A stretch of 64,000 nt of DNA from Longimicrobiales bacterium (GTDB lineage Bacteria; Gemmatimonadota; Gemmatimonadetes; Longimicrobiales; Gaopeijiaceae). This document shows positions 23,466-50,480 of the stretch, one piece after another. The notes under the pieces are model-generated. The model ran no database searches. It saw only the letters and a list, made by a program, of their open reading frames with translations, and was not told where the DNA came from. Position numbers and translations under genes: made by a program. Every line of letters starts with the position of its first letter. Positions within the stretch are counted from its first letter, which is position 1. The stretch spans positions 352,001-416,000 of the forward strand of contig CBDDCX010000008.1 in NCBI GenBank assembly GCA_965226375.1. Reading direction: 5' to 3'.

Positions 23466-25472
23466 TCAAGCTTCGGCACTCCGGTGAGCCACTTCCACTC
23501 GGGCATCGTTGAAGCAGGCGGCCCCACCCACGACGTTCAAGTGGGTCGGGCAAAGCGCCGTGGAGGTCTTCCCGTTCATCGATGATTTTCTCCACGCACC
23601 TTTAGGCATCGACACCACACCCTCTCGGACACGCTCCTCGATCCGTGCTTCACAGACGACCTCACCCAGTTCGTTGAAGACGCGGACGACGTCGCCGTCG
23701 ACGATTCCCCGGACCTCGGCATCGGCCGGACTGATGGACACCGCCAGTACCGGATAGTTGAACTCGCCCAGCGTGCTCGAGATCATCTTGTTGCTCGCCG
23801 GGCTGATGAGCGCGAGCGGATAGGGCGTGTCGGAAACCGTTTCGTAGTGGTAGGGGTGGGGCCCGAGCTCCGACGGGCTGAGATGGATCTTCCCGTCGTG
23901 GGTTCGGGGCATGATCGTGCGGAGTTGGATCGCGCCGTCGGGAAAGTCGACGGTGTCCAGGCGCCCGGCAGATAGCGTCTCTACGTCGGCAGGATTGCCC
24001 TCCAGCCTGACTTCTTCGGCGACCTTCCGCAGGTGGGTCTCGCCGTCCCAGGTGAAGGGAGCGTCGTCGAATCCTCGGGCCCGCGCCAGCAGCGAAAACA
24101 CCTCGTCGTTGGGCTTCGCTTCCCCTACGCGGTCGATCACCGGGCGAATCCCGCCGACCACCAAGTTCCCGTAACCGACCCGCAGGTCGTGCTGCTCGAG
24201 AAATGTCGTCGCGGGCAACACGATATCCGCGTAACGGGCCGTGTCGGTCATGACCTGATCGAAGACCACGGTGAACAGATCCTCTCGAGCCAGCCCTCGA
24301 AGCACCGCGTTCTGGTCCGGCACGGTAACCGCCGGATTGCAGTTGTAGACGAACAGGCCCTTCACCGGCGGGGTCGGATCGCCGGTGAGCAACTCTCCAA
24401 GCTTTGTCATGTTGAGGAGACGAGTCTGCCATGCGACGTCTCCGTAGACGCGACCCGTGCTCAACTTGACGGCTCCGGTGTTGCTCATCGTGTATCCGCC
24501 GCCATAGACCCCGAACTTTCCCATGAGGGCGGGCATGGCCAGGATGGCCGCCACCGCCTGGCCACCGTTGCGATTCCGCTCCAGTCCCCACCCGCACCGA
24601 ATGACTGCGGGGCTCGCGTCCGCATAGGCGCGCGCCAGTGTTTCGATGTTTTCGGCGGGCACGCCGGTCTCGGCGGCAGCGGAGTCCAACGTCCAACGCT
24701 CGGCCTGTGCCAGCAGGGCCTCCATACCATCCGCGTGCTCGGCCAGGAACGGCTCGTCGAGCTCTCCTGCCTCATGCCACAGCCTGACCATCGCGAGGGC
24801 TAAGGGCAGGTCGGTCCCGGGAAGAACAGGTAGGTGCAGGTCTATCTCATTGCCGGAAAAGGGGTTCCATGGGTCGACGACTGCGATAAAGGCACCGTTG
24901 CGCTTCGCTTCGCGAAGGTGCGGCACCAGATGGATATTCGAGGCCTTGGGGTTCGCTCCCCAGATGATGATCGATCGGGCGTCCGGATACGCCTCGAAAG
25001 GTACGCCCGGCATCTTGCCGTACATCCCGAGTGCCACCTCGGTGGTAGGAACCGCGCAAATGGTCGGGTCTAGACGCGAAGCACCCAGCCGCGCGAAGTA
25101 GAGCCTGTCCAGGCCACCCTCGCTCAGGAGTCCGTTCGACCCACCATAGTGGTATGGGAGGATGGCCTCGGCGCCTCACTCGTCACTGATCAGCTCGAAT
25201 CGTTCGGTGATCTCGCCGATGGCTTCATCCCAGGAGATCGGCACATACTCCTCGGAGCCTTTGACGCCTGCGCGGCGCATGGGGTGGAGCAGCCTGTCGG
25301 GGTGATAGACCCGCTGCCCGAATCGGCGGACCTTGTCACAGATAAAGCCGTCGGTCAGGCCGTGGTCGGAGTTGCCGGAAATGCTCTGCAGCTTGCCGTC
25401 CTCTACGGTCACCTCGAGGGCACAGGTGTCCGGGCAGTCCATGATGCAGCTGGTGACCAGCGTCTCCGGCAT
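23466..25472 (-). pseudogene. Molybdopterin oxidoreductase (Fe-S + Mo-bisPGD) interrupted by in-frame TGA at codon 99
   Basis: CIMDCPDTC..FICDK N-terminus; ISDE-TGA(25176-25178)-GAEAILPYHYGG continues in the same frame into the 523-aa ORF (TICA, DTARYADIVLPATTFLE, C-terminal FNDARVEV). Confidence 0.8.
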
Positions 25473-28195: not shown

Positions 28196-28531
28196 ATGAG
28201 TCTTGATCGGGAATGGATTCGGGGGGCAGCCCCGCTGGCCGTACTCACCCTCCTCGACACCCGAGAGATGTATGGGTACGAGTTGGTCGAGGCGTTGGAG
28301 AGGGGCTCCGGCGGTCTGCTCGAGTTGGGGCAGTCTACGGTTTATCCACTTCTCTATAACCTGGAGGGGCGGGGCTACGTGAAGCCGGTCCGGCGTACGG
28401 CTCCGTCCGGTCGGAAGCGGAAGTACTACCGAATCACGGCCGCGGGGCGGTCTTGGTTGGCCGGCCAGCAGGAGCAGTGGGCTACCCTCACGGAGGCGCT
28501 CGGTCGGCTCGGTGTGGCTGGACCCGGGTGA
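28196..28531 (+). CDS. PadR family transcriptional regulator
   Basis: MYGYEL, STVYPLLYNLE, GRKRKYYRITAAG. Confidence 0.93.
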   Translation: MSLDREWIRGAAPLAVLTLLDTREMYGYELVEALERGSGGLLELGQSTVYPLLYNLEGRGYVKPVRRTAPSGRKRKYYRITAAGRSWLAGQQEQWATLTEALGRLGVAGPG

Positions 28532-30233
28532 ACCGCCCAGGCCAACGGGAGGCGATTCCATGACTCGGTGGGAGGGGGAAGCGCTCCCCCACGAAGTCGA
28601 GGAGACCATCCGGCGAGTGTTGAAGGCTGCCCAGCTGCCCTCCTTCGATCGGCCCGACGTCGAGGCGGATCTACGGGGCCATTTCGAGGACGGGCTGGCG
28701 GCAGGCCGTACGGTTCCGGAGCTCCTGGACCGGTTCGGCTGCCCCGACGAGGCGGGCCGCAAGATAGCCCGAGTGCGCGGCAAACATGCGAGCGATCTGA
28801 GTCATGGAAACGATGGGAGGTGGTGGATGTCCGTGAGGGAACTGTGCCGCGAGGCCAAGCTGTCGGCGAGAACGCTGATGCGTGCACCGGCGTTTTCGTT
28901 GTTAGTGGTGACGACCCTCGCCCTGGGCGTCGGGGCCAACACCGCGGTATTCACGGCCCTGGACGCCGTTCTGCTAGCGCCGCTTCCGTACGACGCACCG
29001 GAGCGCCTCGTACGCGTCTACGAAGTGCGGGCCGATGACGAGGGGCAGAGCACCGGTTTCCTGCGACCCGCGGCGGTCCTCGAGTACCGGGAGTGGGACG
29101 AGGTCTTCGAGTCCTTCGGCGTGATCGACAGCTACCGGGAGATGGGAGGTGACCTGACCGACGGGGACCAGCCCGAGCGGGTCATCGTGTCGCACGCCGA
29201 CATAGGACTCTTCGAGTCCCTTGGCGTCGAGCCGCTCAGGGGTCGATTCTTCCATGAGGAGGAGAGCGTCTTTCCCGGAGAGAGCTCGGATCGATCGCCG
29301 GGAGCTCCGGTGACCGTCCTGTCACACGGTCTTTGGGAGCGGCGCTTTGCAGCCGATCCCGGTGTGGTGGGCAGCACGGTCCAGCTCGACGGCAGCACCT
29401 TCGAGGTGGTGGGTGTCATGCCGCAGGGGTTCACCAACCCGTTCGGCAGTCCGCCCGATCTCTGGGTGCCTCAGGACCTGCGCATGGGTGGCTACAACAC
29501 CTGGGGAAACCACTACCTGTCTGGTGTGGCCCGATTGCGGGAGGGCGTGTCGATAGAGTTGGCACAGGACCGGATCGAGGCGCTCGTGGCCGGGCTCGTC
29601 GAGTCCAACAGCGACGCCGAGGGCTGGACGGTGCGGCTCCGCCCGCTTCGAGACGATGTGGTGGGTGAGAACCGGCGCACCATGCTCTGGATTCTCGCAG
29701 TCGCCGTGGGGCTCGTGCTCCTGAGCGCCTGTGTCAACGTGGGTAATCTGATCTTCGCACGGAGTTTGGGGCGCGGAGGCGACCTGGCCGTGCGTGGTGC
29801 GCTGGGATCGGGTCGTGCCAGGCTAATGGCGCACCTCCTGATGGAGAGCGGCCTTCTCGCGGTAGCCGGTGGGATGGCGGGAGTGGTTGTGGGCTGGGTT
29901 GGTGTCAGGGGTATTCTGCTGCTTGCGCCCGATGCCCTCCCGGCACTCATGACTCCCGAGTTGAGCTTTCGGGTCTTCATGGTCGCTCTGGCCGCGACCA
30001 CGGTGGCACTCGCTCTCTTCGGCCTGGTGCCGGCCCTCCGATTTTCGCTGACATCGCCCGCCGATGCACTCCGGGCAGGGGGCCGAGGCGGGACCGGGGG
30101 TCGGGGCCTACGCGGCATGCGCAATCTGCTGGTCGTCATCCAGGTGGCCGTAGCCCTCGTGCTCATGGTGGGAGCCGGACTGCTGGTTCGCAGCTTCTCG
30201 GCCCTCCAGAGAGTGGACCTCGGTCTTGCTCCA

Positions 30234-31300
30234 ATGGGGTATTGCCTTAAGTCCACCGCCCACTACATGTTGTGGTCATGGCGGTTCCGGCTTCTCAGCT
30301 CCGTGGCGGCGTGGACTATCCCCGTACGCGGCTGGAGCTGGACGAGTTCTTCCCCGACGATGCGGCATGCCTGGAGTACGTGGAGGGTCTGCGCTGGCCG
30401 GAAGGGTTTGTGTGCGTGGGCTGTGGCGGGTTGGGAGAGGTCTGGCGAGCATCGCGGGGGCGTCTCGTCTGCCCACACTGTCGAAGGCAGACCTCGGTGC
30501 TGGCGGGAACCGTGTTCCACCGCACGCGCTCGCCCCTGCGTCTGTGGTTTCTCGCTGCCTGGGAGCTCACGAGCCAGAAATACGGAGCCAATGCTCTCGG
30601 GCTCCAGCGCGTGCTCGGACTGGGAAGCTACAAGACAGCGTGGGTCTGGCTCCACAAGCTCCGCCGGGCCATGGTCCGACCGGATCGCGACCAGCTGAGC
30701 GGCGTTGTGCAAGTGGACGAGAGCTATGTCGGGGGCGTGGAGGCTGGAGTGCGGGGCCGCGAGACGATCAAGAAGGCCATCGTCGCGATCGCCGCCGAGG
30801 TCGACGGACGCAAGATCGGGAGAATACGGCTGCGTTGGGTGCCCGACCTCTCCGCTCCGGTTCTGCGAGGCTTCGTCAAGGATAGCATCGCACCGGCAAG
30901 CACGGTGCATACCGACGGATGGCCAAGCTATCAGGGACTCGCCAAACTGGGCTTTCGCCACACGGTCACGAACCTCTCGACCTCCGGCGATCCCGCTCAC
31001 GTGCTCATGTCGGCCGTACATCGGGTGGCGTCTCTCCTCAAGCGCTGGGTCCTCGGAACCCTCCAAGGAGGGATCGCCCGCGAACACCTCCCCTACTATC
31101 TGGACGAGTTCACCTTTCGCTTCAACCGACGCACATCCCGGGCTCGCGGCCTGTTGTTCTACCGCTTGCTTGAGCAGGCTGTTCAGTGTGCTCCCACGCC
31201 AGCTTCGGCCCTTTACCTCGGCACCGGACGTGGGAAACGGCCCGCAGAGCCCCGGTAACCACTATATCTTGGGGTCGGTGGACTTAAGGGAATACCCCCT
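30234..31300 (+). mobile_element. IS1595-family insertion sequence, 1067 bp
   Basis: TIRs ATGGGGTATTGCCTTAAGTCCACCG / AGGGGGTATTCCCTTAAGTCCACCG (reverse complement; 23 of 25 match); direct repeat TTGCTCCA at 30226-30233 and 31301-31308. Confidence 0.95.
30272..31258 (+). CDS. IS1595-family DDE transposase
   Basis: Zn ribbon CVGC..CPHC; GTVFHRTRSPL; VQVDESYVGG; VHTDG; YLDEFTFRFNRR; start could be ATG 30278. Confidence 0.95.
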   Translation: MVMAVPASQLRGGVDYPRTRLELDEFFPDDAACLEYVEGLRWPEGFVCVGCGGLGEVWRASRGRLVCPHCRRQTSVLAGTVFHRTRSPLRLWFLAAWELTSQKYGANALGLQRVLGLGSYKTAWVWLHKLRRAMVRPDRDQLSGVVQVDESYVGGVEAGVRGRETIKKAIVAIAAEVDGRKIGRIRLRWVPDLSAPVLRGFVKDSIAPASTVHTDGWPSYQGLAKLGFRHTVTNLSTSGDPAHVLMSAVHRVASLLKRWVLGTLQGGIAREHLPYYLDEFTFRFNRRTSRARGLLFYRLLEQAVQCAPTPASALYLGTGRGKRPAEPR

Positions 31301-32521
31301 TTGCTCCAAAAGACGTCCTCACGCTGGAGGTCCATCTGCCGGATGCGCGCTACACCGACGGAGCCAGCCGACACGCTTTTCACGAGATGTTCCATGATCG
31401 TGTGGTCGGCCTTGCCGGGGTCGAAGCTGTGGCGGCGATCTCTTGGCTCCCCGTGAGTGGACGATACCACATCTGGAGCGTGACGCCCGACATCGACCGG
31501 CTCCGCGAGTCCGACCGATGGGTGGGCGTCGATGTTCGCGTCTTTGCCGGTGACTACTTCAATACGATGGGCATACCGCTGATGCAGGGCGAAGGCCCGA
31601 TGGATGCGGACCTGGAGGGATCCTTTCCAATCTGGGTAAACAAACTGTATGCCGACGTGATGTTCCCCGACGGCGACGCTGTTGGGAGCCTGATCAGGGC
31701 CTCCGGAGAGAGCCGGAGGATCGCCGGAGTCGTCGGCGACGTGGCTTTCGAGCCCCGAGGATCCACTTCCTACCAGATCTATATCCCACACGTGACCTTT
31801 GCCGACGACAGGAACTGGGCCCTGATCCAGACCGTGCGGGCGCGGGGTGACCTCGACGCGCTCAAAGAGCGCATCGGAGACGAGTTGAGGATGGTCGACG
31901 GTGAGCTCGTCCTGTTCCGGCCGCGCCCCATGCAGAGTCTACTGGCGTCCGCCCAGGCTCAAGACCGTTTCGCGGTGAGTCTCATGGGCATCTTCGCCCT
32001 TTTGGCGCTCGTGCTCTCTGGGGTGGGCACGTACGGTGTGCTGGCCACGGCCGTGGCCGGGCGCCGCCGCGAGATCGGCATTCGGATCGCCCTTGGGGCC
32101 GACGCTTTTTCCGTACGGATGATGGTGCTGACATCGGCGGTCGGCATGACCGCAGGAGGCGCGCTGTTGGGCGTAGCGGGCGCCTGGGTCGGATCGCGGT
32201 GGCTCCAAGACCTTCTGTTCGAGGTCAGCCCGGCGGATCCCGGGGTGATGGTGTTCTCGGTCGTTCTACTCGTGCTCTTGAGCGGCGCAGCGGCGTGGGT
32301 GCCCATCCGTCGCGCGACAGGCGTGGACCCTGCGAGGGTGATTACGATGGAGTAGAGGGGGATTTCGAGCGTCAGCTGTCTTCGACGGACGCGCGCAACG
32401 CGCGATCGAAGGTGTGGATTCGCTTGACCCCGCGACGGCGACAGCAGGCCAGGTGAAGCAGATCCCGAGCGGTGAGACCGGGGTGTCGGGTGATGGAGGA
32501 ATCGTCCGCGGCCGTTGGACC

Positions 32522-33216: not shown

Positions 33217-34653
33217 TCAGCGTATCACGTACCACTCGGTCTGATAGGTCCGGAAGTACTCATACCCGTTCGCCGTCAGATAGCCGTCATCCTCCATGGG
33301 TATCGTCACCGTGCCCCCGTCGTACTCGGGGACCGCCGTGGTCGCGCTGAATTCGATGGAGCGGTACGCGCCGTCACGGAGGTAGGAGTCCCGACTGGGC
33401 GGTGAGGACAGGTCCATGTTGCGAGCGTTGATGGACGGACCCAGGGCGTGGCCGTGATATCCGATGGGGTGGGAATACAAACTGGGAAGGAAGTCCACCC
33501 CTTCGAGCTTGCCGGCGATGGCCAGGGTGGCCTCCCAGCCGCTCATCCCGGGTCGGGGCTCCGATGCGAACGCCTCGTGAACCAGGTTCGCGTTTCGGAG
33601 AGCGGTCTTCAGCCCCTCGGGTACGTCGTCCTCTCCATCCCGCAGGATGTACGCCACCTTCTGCCAGTCGCTCGCGAAGCCCACGTAGTCGAAGCCGCAG
33701 TCCAGATGGATGATGTCTCCCTGCTGGAAGACGAGGTCGTCCGGGGCCGGGTGGACATAGGGTATCATCTCGCCCGTATCGGGATCGTAGCGCTGAACCG
33801 CCACGTGGATCTCGAACCAAGGTTTTCCACCCACCCCAAGCTCGGCCACGCTCTCCTCGAAGAACCACTTGATATCAGCGGCTCGGGTAACCCCGGGGGT
33901 GACGACGACATTGGAGAGAGCCGTCTGCGCGATCACTGAGGTGGCCAGTACCAGGGCTCGATAGGGCTCCAGCTCGTCGGCCAGACGGGTATCGAACACG
34001 TCTTCGATGAGCTCCACGGCGGATACGAAGCGCGATTCCGCCTCGGCACCCATCGCATCCGCGAGAAACTGGTAGCCGTCGTGAGTGAGACCGCTGTCGT
34101 GTCCCCGGCGACCGCCCATGTTGAGTCCGATCGAGGTGGGGCGATAGCGCTCCCACAGCGCCTGGAGACCGGTGCGGGTGTCCTGGATGCCGCGCGCATT
34201 CCTCGCGGCCGGGATGGGCTCGAAGAAGCGGCGGTAATCTTCGGTGGGTCGCCAGTAGTCGGAGTAGCTGGCGAGGCCCCGTTCGCCGTCATCCACGAAC
34301 ACCATCACGTCGCGTCGCCGCGTGTAGTGTAGCGGGGGTGCCACATACTGGGTCACGGCGTCGGGATGGAACTCCTCGCTCACCACGATCCACATTTCGA
34401 TGCCGTGCTCGCGCATCTGTTCGAGGAGGAGCGGGCGCTTCTGGTCCAGCCACTCAAGGCGGAGTTCGTACTGGGCTCGCATGCCGAGGAGCTCGGGCAT
34501 GGCCGGGATGACGCGGCCGTCGAACAGCTCAATCGGGCCTTCGCCAGCCCCCCCGTTCTCGTCGCGCGCAGGACCGTCGGTGCAGGAGACGAGGAGTGCG
34601 GCGACAGCTGAGCAGATGACTACACGGTAGGCTGCTTGTCTCCTGGCCGTCAT
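33217..34653 (-). CDS. M24 family (Xaa-Pro peptidase-like) lipoprotein
   Basis: Lipobox LVSC; GDIIHLDCG..ASDWQ, YSHPIGYHGHALGP, SIE, MEDD; ATGA overlap with the upstream gene. Confidence 0.85.
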   Translation of the reverse strand: MTARRQAAYRVVICSAVAALLVSCTDGPARDENGGAGEGPIELFDGRVIPAMPELLGMRAQYELRLEWLDQKRPLLLEQMREHGIEMWIVVSEEFHPDAVTQYVAPPLHYTRRRDVMVFVDDGERGLASYSDYWRPTEDYRRFFEPIPAARNARGIQDTRTGLQALWERYRPTSIGLNMGGRRGHDSGLTHDGYQFLADAMGAEAESRFVSAVELIEDVFDTRLADELEPYRALVLATSVIAQTALSNVVVTPGVTRAADIKWFFEESVAELGVGGKPWFEIHVAVQRYDPDTGEMIPYVHPAPDDLVFQQGDIIHLDCGFDYVGFASDWQKVAYILRDGEDDVPEGLKTALRNANLVHEAFASEPRPGMSGWEATLAIAGKLEGVDFLPSLYSHPIGYHGHALGPSINARNMDLSSPPSRDSYLRDGAYRSIEFSATTAVPEYDGGTVTIPMEDDGYLTANGYEYFRTYQTEWYVIR

Positions 34654-36077
34654 ATGCTGCAGACCTGCCCTTCCCCGTCTATCATCGGGAAGCCGGCATC
34701 CTCCCAGGCGGTCATTCCGCCTGTCACGTTGTAGAGGTCCCCGTAGCCGTGCCGGAGCAAGAGACTTATGGCCGTGCTGGAACGGTTGCCTCCTCCACAG
34801 AGCACCGCGATGGAGTCGTCGGTGGCCAGCTCCAGCTTGTCGATCTGGGCCAGTACGTCCAGCTGTGGCGCCATACTGATGTAGGGCATGAAGTGGGCCC
34901 CTTCGATGTGACCCTCGTCCCATTCGTCGCTCTCACGAACATCAAGCGTCCTGAGGCCGTTGGCGGACAGCATGCTCTTCAGTTCATGGACGTCGATCTG
35001 GGGGGTCACCTCCAGGGCGTGTCCTGCTTCGACCCATGCCCCGACACCGCCGTCGAGATACCCGGCCACGAGACGATCCAGCGCGATGAACGCCATCTTG
35101 TAGATGCACGTCTGAGCGTCCTCGGCGGTCTCGCTGAGCAGAAGCAACGGTGTGTCGTCGGGCACCACCCAACCGACTCGCTGCTCGAACTCCGACCCCG
35201 ACTGCTGCACATGGTAGGACCCCGGAATGTGGCCGGCACCGAAGGCGGCCGTGGAGCGCGTGTCGATCAAGGCGTGCCCGGCCTCCATCAGTTCCTGGAC
35301 TCGCTCGAGTGTGAGGGGCTGGGCTGTGGGGATCGTCGACGTCAGCTCCACATGCCCTTGATTCGTCGCGACGATGTTCAGGATGTTCGATAGCTTCAGC
35401 GGCTGATCCTCATCCATATAGGCCGTGAACCGGTCCCGATCCTTGATCGTGAGCGCAGCGTTGTAGCGCCGCTCGTATCCAACCGTTGTGGCAACCTTGC
35501 CACTGGAGACGCGGCCTCACGTGGAGCCGGCGATGTGCCCCGGATAGACCTCCACATGGTCGGGGAGGTCGAGGAAACGTGGTATGGACACGTCGAAGAG
35601 GACGGGCGCACCCTCTTCGCCGGCCTGCGCCAGGTCGGGACGAGCCACATCGCCCACGAACACGAAGTCGGCCGTGAGGATGAACCAGGGCTCGGGCCCC
35701 CGCGGATAGTCGTACACCAGAAGGTTGATCTGCTCGGGGCGATGTCCAGGGGCGTGGACGACCTCCATGCCCACGCCACCCATTCTGATCATGTCTCCGT
35801 GCTTCACCCGCGTGGCTTCGTACGTGATTTCGGTCAACTCCGGCAGGATCAACTCTCCGCCGGTCGCCTCGGCCAGAAGCCGTGCACCCGATACGTGGTC
35901 CGCATGGCTGTGGGAGTCGATGACGTACCGGATGGTCGAGCCCTGCTTCTTGGCCATGTCCAGGTAGGGCTGGATATCCCAGAGAGGATCGAACACGGCG
36001 CATTCACCGGTGCGCTGACAGCCGATCATGTAGGCTGCGCAGCCTGTCTCTTCACGGATGATCGTTTCCAACCACAT
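34650..36077 (-). CDS. Probable selenoprotein: MBL-fold persulfide dioxygenase-like domain + two rhodanese domains (CstB/Blh-like), Sec at codon 187
   Basis: SHSHADH, PGH, GDVARPDL, then YPGHIAGST-TGA(35517-35519)-GRVSSGK..VGYERRYN in frame into the rhodanese domains (LCGGGNRS, GGMTAW); SECIS-like hairpin follows the TGA. Confidence 0.88.
35468..35516 (-). promoter_or_regulatory. Bacterial SECIS-like element
   Basis: mRNA: UGA-13 nt-GUGGCA[AGGU]UGCCAC, with a lower stem GCCGCGUCUCCA/UGGAUACGAGCGGC. Confidence 0.78.
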
Positions 36078-36356
36078 CGCGGTACTCCTTACCGGTAGGC
36101 GCTTTCTACGGTTGGGCGCTCTTTCCGGGCCCCGAGGCCGACTCAGGAATGCCGTCTTAAGGTAGCATCCGTCCGGCAAACCGCACGCTTCGGGGCATCG
36201 CGTCGGGTGTGAGACAACGGCTCGGAGTGGGAATCGCGGCGGGAGCCGCGGTAGAGCCCGCGGCGGAGCCGCGGTATATGGCTTGTCGAGTCGCCTGTGC
36301 TGGACGTAGGCTGACGAGCATCGAAACGGCTCGTCTCCGATCAGAAAGGATCAGCC

Positions 36357-49814: not shown

Positions 49815-50480
49815 TCAGTCCGTCTTGTCCAGCAGCCGCAACAGCGAGGCTCGTGCCTCAGGCACGTCGAAGTCGTACGGTCCCTGACCTCGCCGGTAGT
49901 GGATCCGCCCTCCTTCCACGATGTATATCCTCTCGGGCCAGGCTGAGAACGCCTCGCACGCTGCGTCGTCCATGCCGTCCACCAGGGTGGGGATGCTGAG
50001 TCCCAGCCGTTGGGCACACTGACGAGCGGCGTCCCACCGCTCGCTGAATACGGTGTGCTGGGCGATCCGGATTCCGGCGGCCTCGTTCGAGTCCGTTTGC
50101 CACCCGTCTACGGAGTGGGCCTCCGCGATGTAGACGATGAAGAACCGGGCCCGATCACCCAGCTCCTCGTAGAGGGCTTGCAGGGCGCCAGCCTGGCGCC
50201 TGAAGGGCGGTCACGTGTAGCTCCCGAAGATGAGCATCACGGGCCGATCGTACTCGGCCGCGATGTCCACGGTGTCCGAGCCTGCTTTGTCCCCGTCGGC
50301 CAATACGGTCAGGGAGAACGCGGGCACGGGGTCGCCTACCTCCAGACGGTCGGGTCGTCGATACGCCACGAGCGTGCACCGAATAGCCTCTTGCTGTGCG
50401 GCGTCTCGTGCCTCGGTCAGCGAGGACTCGTCACGTGGCTCCACGAGATCTCGGTCTACCGGTTGGTCCATATGCTCCAC
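49815..50480 (-). CDS. Probable selenoprotein: iodothyronine deiodinase-like (thioredoxin fold)
   Basis: RPVMLIFGSYT-TGA(50211-50213)-PPF continues in frame for 131 codons through VYIAEAH, DGW, LVDGMDD, AWPERIY and GPY to TGA 49815-49817. Start is GTG 50480 or ATG 50471. Confidence 0.93.
50177..50210 (-). promoter_or_regulatory. Bacterial SECIS-like element
   Basis: mRNA: UGA-10 nt-GGCGCCA[GGC]UGGCGCC, extendable by CUUCA/UGCAAG. Confidence 0.75.

Follow-up and report, generated by a model that had tools for sequence, protein, structure and literature searches.

A probable selenocysteine form of a CstB-like persulfide dioxygenase, split by an in-frame TGA in three bacterial phyla

The 64,000-nucleotide stretch of a Longimicrobiales bacterium analyzed here (contig CBDDCX010000008.1, positions 352,001 to 416,000; hereafter the window) encodes on its minus strand a three-domain protein related to the Staphylococcus aureus persulfide dioxygenase CstB, with a TGA triplet in frame at codon 187. 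We conclude that this is almost certainly one selenoprotein gene, in which selenocysteine (Sec) would be inserted at UGA187. If Sec is granted, chemistry like that of CstB is likely by analogy, and the full proposal, a selenoprotein made by hairpin-directed read-through of UGA187 and working like CstB, seems on balance probable from the sequence evidence.

A single reading frame interrupted by TGA

Two entries of the open reading frame (ORF) list, 35517-36179(-) and 34650-35417(-), share one frame. A preliminary description of this DNA had proposed that they form one gene split only by the TGA, and both the list and the read-through translation bear this out: with TGA read as U, the frame begins with ATG 36077, ends with the stop codon 34652-34650 and contains a single internal TGA, in YPGHIAGST-U-GRVSSGKV (Table 1). 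ATG 36077 is the likely start, because an AAGGAG motif lies upstream and homologues have the same Met start; purine-rich motifs also lie upstream in most of the seven homologues inspected. We rule out an assembly error at the TGA, because contigs from four of four public runs (three studies) cover 35519-35517 with no other letter, yet carry strain differences at six other places in the stretch. One of these runs (X3) is identical to the window and may be its source.

Table 1. Features of the predicted selenoprotein gene in the window
Feature	Position	Strand	Description
Full gene	34650..36077	-	475 codons + stop, UGA187 read as selenocysteine (predicted); CstB-type persulfide dioxygenase / pseudo-rhodanese / rhodanese
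Shine-Dalgarno-like AAGGAG	36085..36090	-	7 nt ahead of ATG 36077
MBL-fold persulfide dioxygenase domain	35343..36077	-	~residues 1-245
C13	36039..36041	-	second-shell position; Gln in CstB, Thr in canonical persulfide dioxygenases
C20	36018-36020	-	counterpart of CstB C20
In-frame TGA, codon 187	35517..35519	-	predicted Sec at position of CstB C201
SECIS upper stem-loop	35488..35503	-	6 bp stem, 4-nt loop, G at loop position 2; overlaps codons 192-197
Middle pseudo-rhodanese	35028..35315	-	~residues 255-350, without catalytic-loop Cys
C-terminal rhodanese	34692..35000	-	~residues 360-462; C427 codon 34799-34797
MBL, metallo-beta-lactamase; SECIS, selenocysteine insertion sequence.

The TGA is conserved in three phyla

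Codon 187 is TGA in 60 distinct loci, spread over Gemmatimonadota, Chloroflexota and Acidobacteriota, whose products are 50-86% identical to the window protein. Three sources supplied loci: the best 30 matches from 151 genomes of the family, a GTDB scan (77 loci) and phylum samples. Among 87 alignments over codon 187, 52 have TGA and 33, in more distant rows, have TGC or TGT, which supplies the TGA/Cys pairs that the preliminary description suggested looking for; the other two are misaligned pieces of a frameshifted locus (L082), in which TGA and hairpin can be recognized once the frame is shifted. The 52 TGA rows represent 47 distinct sequences, and after one frameshifted elsewhere (L078) was dropped, 46 entered the codon analysis. 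All 46 have TGA and never TAA or TAG, as do 13 of 13 new loci from the phylum samples (50-61% identity). A TGA unique to this assembly and lacking a conserved hairpin is therefore contradicted.

This pattern bears on whether the UGA is a true stop that leaves either a pseudogene or two proteins, a 186-aa MBL piece and a rhodanese piece. Pieces of 186 and 277-286 aa do stand in public records, and an apparently genuine nonsense TGA in another gene of the window (25178-25176) indicates that such breaks occur. A true stop, however, would have to fall on the same codon as the same triplet in 60 loci of three phyla, down to 50% identity. It would also break the protein exactly on the catalytic Cys and remove the last helices of the MBL domain. 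Moreover, codons 188-219 downstream of it are 82% conserved as protein, without a conserved start codon. We regard this explanation as extremely improbable.

A hairpin frozen at the nucleotide level

The perfect hairpin GUGGCA[AGGU]UGCCAC noted in the preliminary description was confirmed at 35503-35488; 13 nt lie between the TGA and its first base, and 19 nt between the TGA and its loop. The rules for bacterial SECIS elements quoted in passages of PMC13188914 are a loop of 3-9 nt, G in the first two loop positions, a stem of 4-16 bp, a spacing of 16-37 nt and a minimum free energy <= -7.5. The window hairpin fits them, with a 4-nt loop, G at position 2, 6 bp, 19 nt and -8.0 kcal/mol for the 16-mer. 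We nevertheless rejected hairpin stability as evidence for Sec because its z-scores are unremarkable (-0.5 to -1.9 over four windows, not above chance) and because a hairpin satisfying loose rules follows 8,671 of the 110,346 TGA triplets in the genome (7.9%).

The hairpin is significant because it is conserved across genes, not because it is stable. Among 152 conserved four-to-six-fold degenerate columns of the 46 aligned genes, only three use a single codon: S192 (AGT, 46/46), G193 (GGC, 46/46) and V195 (GTT, 45/45). Among 77 two-fold columns K194 alone does so. The 152 columns have a median entropy of 1.65 bits, and codon bias in the remaining columns peaks at 86% for Ser, 76% for Gly and 76% for Val; elsewhere in these genes Ser is encoded by AGT in 12% of cases and Val by GTT in 20%. 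This synonymous freeze, confined to the codons of the hairpin, is selection at the nucleotide level on a SECIS. The upper stem is 100% paired in 20/20 sequences, with five of its six pairs invariant and one alternating between G-C and G-U, a change on one side only that turns Ala into Val. This hairpin recurs in the 13 later loci, a single one of which has T for G in the loop. The longer lower stem claimed in the preliminary description is not conserved: 79% of its cells are paired, no better than in shuffles, and it does not appear when 20 sequences are folded to a consensus.

Selenocysteine machinery and genetic code

The genome encodes selA, selB, selC and selD, as the selenoprotein proposal had called for. 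Three of them exceed curated cut-offs (selA at C8:1329876-1331225, selB from C7:545741 and selD from C6:613956, the last with an in-frame TGA of its own), and tRNA-Sec, at C7:594801, scores 69.5 bits, over the Rfam cut-off. TGA ends more long ORFs than either other stop codon does (1250 of 2391), and tRNA-Sec is the only tRNA with a UCA anticodon found by ARAGORN; on these grounds we read the genetic code as standard, with Sec recoding. Both facts count against a UGA read as Cys or Trp through an altered code or a special tRNA, which would give an ordinary Cys-type enzyme. Homologues with Cys at the site are what such a reading has in its favor, but it would also make a frozen hairpin at SECIS distance needless, and we give it hardly any credence.

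Four other genes in the genome are likely selenoprotein genes (SelD, FdhA-like, deiodinase-like and redoxin-like), with similar stems 8-16 nt after the UGA. Likely Sec codons lie at C8:1866912(-) in the FdhA-like gene (RA-U-HAP), at C8:2149757(+) in the redoxin-like gene (GHW-U-PWC) and at C6:613986(+) in selD. The deiodinase-like gene (GSYT-U-PPF) is a second likely selenoprotein gene within the window, at 49820-50480 (-) with its TGA at 50213-50211; it belongs to a known family, scores 161.8 bits against NF038285, under the cut-off of 250, and has a 7-bp hairpin after the TGA. A molybdopterin oxidoreductase gene at 23466-25470 (-) is also broken by an in-frame TGA (25178-25176). We rejected this one as a Sec codon, since the same-genus relative L047 has TGG (Trp) there, and regard it as a nonsense change or an assembly error.

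Among genomes that carry the gene, selA is present in 42/46 of the first set and 12/13 of the later set, against a background of 112/151 and 162/201 genomes (74-81%); the latter tally includes three genomes flagged as unpublished (G511, G536 and G639), on which no other result depends. Of the four first-set carriers without selA, two encode both selB and tRNA-Sec, a third has tRNA-Sec alone, and in the fourth neither was found; the one later-set carrier without selA is G732.

Domain architecture and relation to CstB

Pfam finds Lactamase_B followed by two Rhodanese stretches, and C427 lies within LCGGGNRS. The proposed order of MBL domain, rhodanese and rhodanese with CGGGNR is upheld by Pfam, alignment and fold. 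The middle rhodanese, previously called Cys-less, indeed has no loop Cys, but it does contain one Cys (C324), in a helix. No NCBIfam model scores over its cut-off for the window protein. Its AlphaFold2 model (pLDDT 89.5, pTM 0.87) matches 3TP9, a beta-lactamase/rhodanese protein of Alicyclobacillus acidocaldarius, over the full length (TM 0.83). This protein is the best match in both sequence (E 1.7e-75) and structure (34% identity), and has Cys at the Sec site and His at position 13.

CstB itself (3R2U; phmmer E 5e-52, ~29% identity) has the same three-domain order, Fe triad and loop X-Gly dipeptide, at 201-202. The PDB title of 3R2U names only an S. aureus metallo-beta-lactamase; we tied it to CstB by residue match, since its residues, shifted by a constant offset of 24, agree with those named in passages of a preprint on CstB (PMC12934615). 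With this numbering, CstB H56/H119/D145 correspond to H56/H112/D137 of the window protein, C201 to U187, C408 to C427, G198 to G184, R154 to R146, G202 to G188, R370/R413 to R381/R432, H58 to H58 and C20 to C20. According to the same passages, C201 lies 3.4 Å from the Fe without binding it and mimics glutathione: it is persulfidated, S-sulfonated by Fe/O2 and shuttled ~27 Å to C408, giving thiosulfate, and C201A and C408A are inactive. They also invoke a non-canonical two-electron-reduced S-sulfonate on C201, report Q13T CstB to be inactive and describe C20 as persulfidated in a crystal, with its meaning unassigned.

Residues required for CstB turnover are retained across the Sec set. The Fe triad is invariant (H56 45/45, H112 46/46, D137 46/46), as are U187-G188, G184 and R146 (46/46 each), C427, R381 and R432 (44/44 each) and H58. 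The preliminary description had placed Sec at the sulfur-handling Cys near the metal site, and had ascribed to CstB the same layout with a need for one Cys in the dioxygenase domain and one in the rhodanese. Both points agree with what is quoted from PMC12934615: U187 is the exact counterpart of C201, and U187 and C427 keep the two positions whose Ala variants are inactive. Other positions vary more. C13 is found in 45/45 of the first set and 13/13 later loci, and Cys-form relatives also have Cys there. The C20 position holds Cys in 44/45 of the first set and Ala, Ser or Val in all 13 later loci, and position 140 (CstB F148) is Met in 25/46 and Phe in the window protein. That protein also has an extra C-terminal Cys relative to CstB; this residue, C473, is kept in 37/39 and missing from most Acidobacteriota forms. 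In two members of the subfamily (P0074 and P0086) the loop segment bearing Cys or Sec falls in an alignment gap; these are possibly inactive or revertants to the canonical type.

Because neither the F148/L205 pair nor Q13 is kept, we treat the window protein and its relatives as a subfamily distinct from CstB and not as strict-sense CstB orthologues. The earlier label "CstB/Blh-like" holds in its first half only. Blh (NF040641) has an MBL-type dioxygenase domain in common with the window protein, but the score is 48.3 bits against a cut-off of 625, and because the match is confined to profile positions 150-384, the domain order differs. The family motif previously given as PGHGAGSxCG also does not apply, since the nearest Cys relatives read PGH[VLI]AGSTCGRV.

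Other known systems share parts of this design. ETHE1 (4CHL), the Myxococcus xanthus protein 4YSB and PRF of B. phytofirmans (5VE3) have the MBL fold and the His-His-Asp Fe site in common with the window protein. Canonical persulfide dioxygenases, however, are without the C201/U187 loop (a gap in the 4YSB alignment) and, in the account quoted from PMC12934615, use free glutathione persulfide. Rhodanese forms 1-5, a type III sulfide:quinone oxidoreductase (SQR) selenoprotein, YeeE/YedE and DsrE-like proteins, as listed in parts of PMC13188914, have Sec for a sulfur-carrying Cys and a SECIS right after the UGA. Their Sec lies in a rhodanese, flavoprotein or transporter domain, whereas the window protein would have Sec in the MBL/dioxygenase domain and Cys in the rhodanese.

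Proposed mechanism

We propose that the short hairpin overlapping codons 192-197 directs SelB and tRNA-Sec to read through UGA187. The outer sulfur of a small-molecule persulfide or polysulfide would pass to the U187 selenol on a glycine-rich mobile loop, giving an Se-S adduct that mimics glutathione persulfide. The loop would bring this adduct to the non-heme Fe(II) (H56/H112/D137), where O2 would oxidize the outer sulfur to a tethered sulfonate. It would then swing to the rhodanese site, guided by R381/R432, and persulfidated C427 would remove the sulfonate as thiosulfate. C13 is adjacent to the metal site and could act in reducing or protecting U187. The net role would be the oxidative clearance of sulfane sulfur. 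Judging from general Sec chemistry, selenium might offer faster sulfur capture and release and reversible instead of irreversible over-oxidation, an advantage here because residue 187 would lie a few angstroms from an O2-activating iron.

The most specific form of this proposal is tentative, and we put it somewhat below an even chance: that a non-heme iron dioxygenase uses its own Sec as a covalently bound substrate, the Se-tethered sulfonate leaving as thiosulfate, with C13 as a resolving or protecting partner. If true, this would be a catalytic role of Sec unlike those in thiol oxidoreductases or as a metal ligand, in a fold without a catalogued selenoprotein. Bacterial use of selenocysteine would then extend to the MBL fold and to O2-dependent persulfide oxidation. 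A naturally selenium-bearing enzyme whose close Cys relatives are ~52% identical could also serve as a probe of the S-sulfonate intermediate of CstB and of the benefit of Se near an O2-activating iron.

Gene neighborhood and alternative functions

The neighbors of the gene in the window are an M24 peptidase-like gene, a hotdog thioesterase and a zinc-type dehydrogenase; there is no sulfur operon and, compared with CstB, no cst-type operon. Among 31 Chloroflexota loci, by comparison, we found a Psr/Phs-like molybdenum (Mo) oxidoreductase at 25, a TorD-type chaperone at 24, two YeeE/YedE sulfur transporter genes at 20, NrfD at 10, SQR with DUF1641 at 6 and SulP at 3. The best matches of the Mo-oxidoreductase are PhsA/PsrA, below cut-off. 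The window genome has the same Mo enzyme cluster (C7:335061-340980, 57% identity) and a YeeE pair on other contigs. Over the wider interval C7:334129-341041 (L196:6129-13041) we observed a ferredoxin-NrfD fusion, a 972-aa Mo-oxidoreductase without an obvious twin-arginine leader, a TorD-type chaperone and SulP; in Anaerolineae this cluster lies next to the Sec gene, to which it is unlinked in the window genome. At one Chloroflexota locus (L070:1535-4538) the Sec gene stands beside a canonical Cys CstB-like paralogue in a single sulfur cluster, suggesting non-redundant roles of the two copies.

This context supports a place in sulfane-sulfur metabolism, and it also keeps alive a second function for the selenoprotein, that of a mainly O2-independent sulfur carrier or transferase in which U187 and C427, perhaps with C13 and C473, relay sulfane sulfur to or from a neighboring Psr/Phs-type molybdoenzyme, dioxygenase chemistry being minor or yielding sulfite. 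The prevalence of Mo-oxidoreductase, chaperone and NrfD genes over SQR, the Mo cluster elsewhere in the window genome, the replacement of Q13 by C13 and the retention of C473 all speak for such a carrier. Yet nothing varies in the Fe triad, the loop glycines or the rhodanese arginines that CstB turnover requires, the Mo enzyme is adjacent in no Gemmatimonadota or Acidobacteriota locus, and C473 fails in most Acidobacteriota forms. We consider a carrier unlikely, though deserving of attention.

Sulfur and selenium are similar enough to make a selenium-species substrate chemically plausible, and the preliminary description had mentioned selenide metabolism as an option. An enzyme specialized for selenide or selenopersulfides instead of sulfur would fit the YeeE/YedE neighbors, which match the selenium-linked YedE/FdhT model faintly (E 8e-4). 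These neighbors fit models of the thiosulfate transporter TsuA better, however. In addition, no sel genes lie near the gene, selA, selB, selD and selC being elsewhere in the genome, and the Cys forms of the subfamily share all other motifs. The option found no support beyond its possibility, and we judge it quite improbable.

Several observations weigh against the preferred reading, a CstB-like enzyme made by hairpin-directed insertion of Sec. No compensatory double change was seen in the nearly invariant stem, and in the G-U variant, present in 28/46 genes, the bare 16-nt core folds at just -5.3 kcal/mol. Co-occurrence with selA is weak support for Sec because the background is already high, and in one carrier genome (G174) selA, selB and tRNA-Sec were not found with the queries used. 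Cys stands in place of CstB Q13; the family has Ser/Thr (position 191) for L205 and mostly Met for F148, a pair called invariant in CstB-like proteins in passages of PMC12934615, a single 2026 preprint that is the source of the CstB mechanism. The motif HxHxDH (His at 61) replaces HxHxDF of CstB, and a two-metal site is therefore possible. None of the tested sulfur neighbors was present at 16 Gemmatimonadota/Acidobacteriota loci (several with short flanks) or at 14 further phylum-sample loci. Finally, no SQR-like gene was found in the window genome (best E 1.4e-6) or in 11 of the 18 carrier genomes searched with one query.

Distribution and evolution

The subfamily is patchily distributed, occurring in 10/151 genomes of the family, 6/401 of the phylum and 12/401 of the phylum of the Acidobacteria carrier; in a Chloroflexota sample of 301, the center genome alone carries it. 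Most of its carriers are uncultured members of Gemmatimonadota, Anaerolineae and Acidobacteriota, and selenium supply may link to microbial sulfur detoxification in them. In a FastTree of 76 rows, which includes a subset of the Sec loci, 32 Sec and 15 non-Sec rows group together as a subfamily (support 100), separate from the canonical CstB-like proteins. Within the same tree the 12 Gemmatimonadota rows are a clade (96), and because this clade is nested among Chloroflexota rows, the topology suggests a transfer involving these two phyla. An N-domain tree of 100 rows (77 truncated, 23 Cys) needs three Cys/Sec changes, compatible with one Sec gain followed by reversions.

Independent Sec gains in distant CstB-like paralogues (G149, G006, G128 and G237) were considered and rejected: these have Cys at the site, and their stops lie elsewhere or outside the alignment. 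A metagenome scan with a Cys relative (P0004) returned distant relatives only, of which 27 aligned over the site, all with Cys, and viral contigs gave no match to the degenerate site pattern. Near-identical Sec copies (L044 and L045) lie on different contigs of one assembly, and the L047 coding sequence is present in G093, a genome of the same genus as the window genome.

Annotation and catalogues

As the preliminary description anticipated, standard annotation splits the gene. Public records hold 186-aa N-terminal pieces named "MBL fold metallo-hydrolase" (e.g. MCB8924811.1 and NOX63713.1), the two largest clusters of which have 337 and 160 members, and C-terminal pieces of 277-286 aa. Full-length database matches peak at ~52% identity and have Cys wherever the motif is intact; the only closer matches are C-terminal pieces. 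Among the best 120 short database matches, 118 protein records stop at the residue before Sec, and no retrieved protein record contains U. Recognizing the Sec codon would repair a systematic annotation error, that of records ending one residue before it.

No MBL, persulfide dioxygenase or ETHE1 family has an entry among the 119 prokaryotic selenoprotein families in Table 1 of a 2026 inventory (PMC13188914), the part of that source considered here. Such a family was also not found in main-text passages of PMC9312934, PMC13326102, PMC12013277 and PMC13745706, with BSepDB Table S2 outside this scope, or in parts of the supplements of PMC13326102 and PMC12013277; a lone occurrence of "mbl" in PMC9312934 is not shown as an MBL family in the passages concerned. 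No NCBIfam selenoprotein model scores over its cut-off: NF041203 and NF045694 match weakly, in the rhodanese domain only and far below cut-off. Literature searches found no prior description of a Sec CstB-like enzyme, with subscription papers and the Haft neighborhood papers outside their scope; matches to "CstB" were rejected as cystatin B papers by title.

Other features of the window

An ABC-permease-like gene at 28512-32355 (+), downstream of a PadR-like ORF, is apparently interrupted by a transposase-like ORF (30272-31258), which we take from its motifs to be IS1595-like; these names are provisional.

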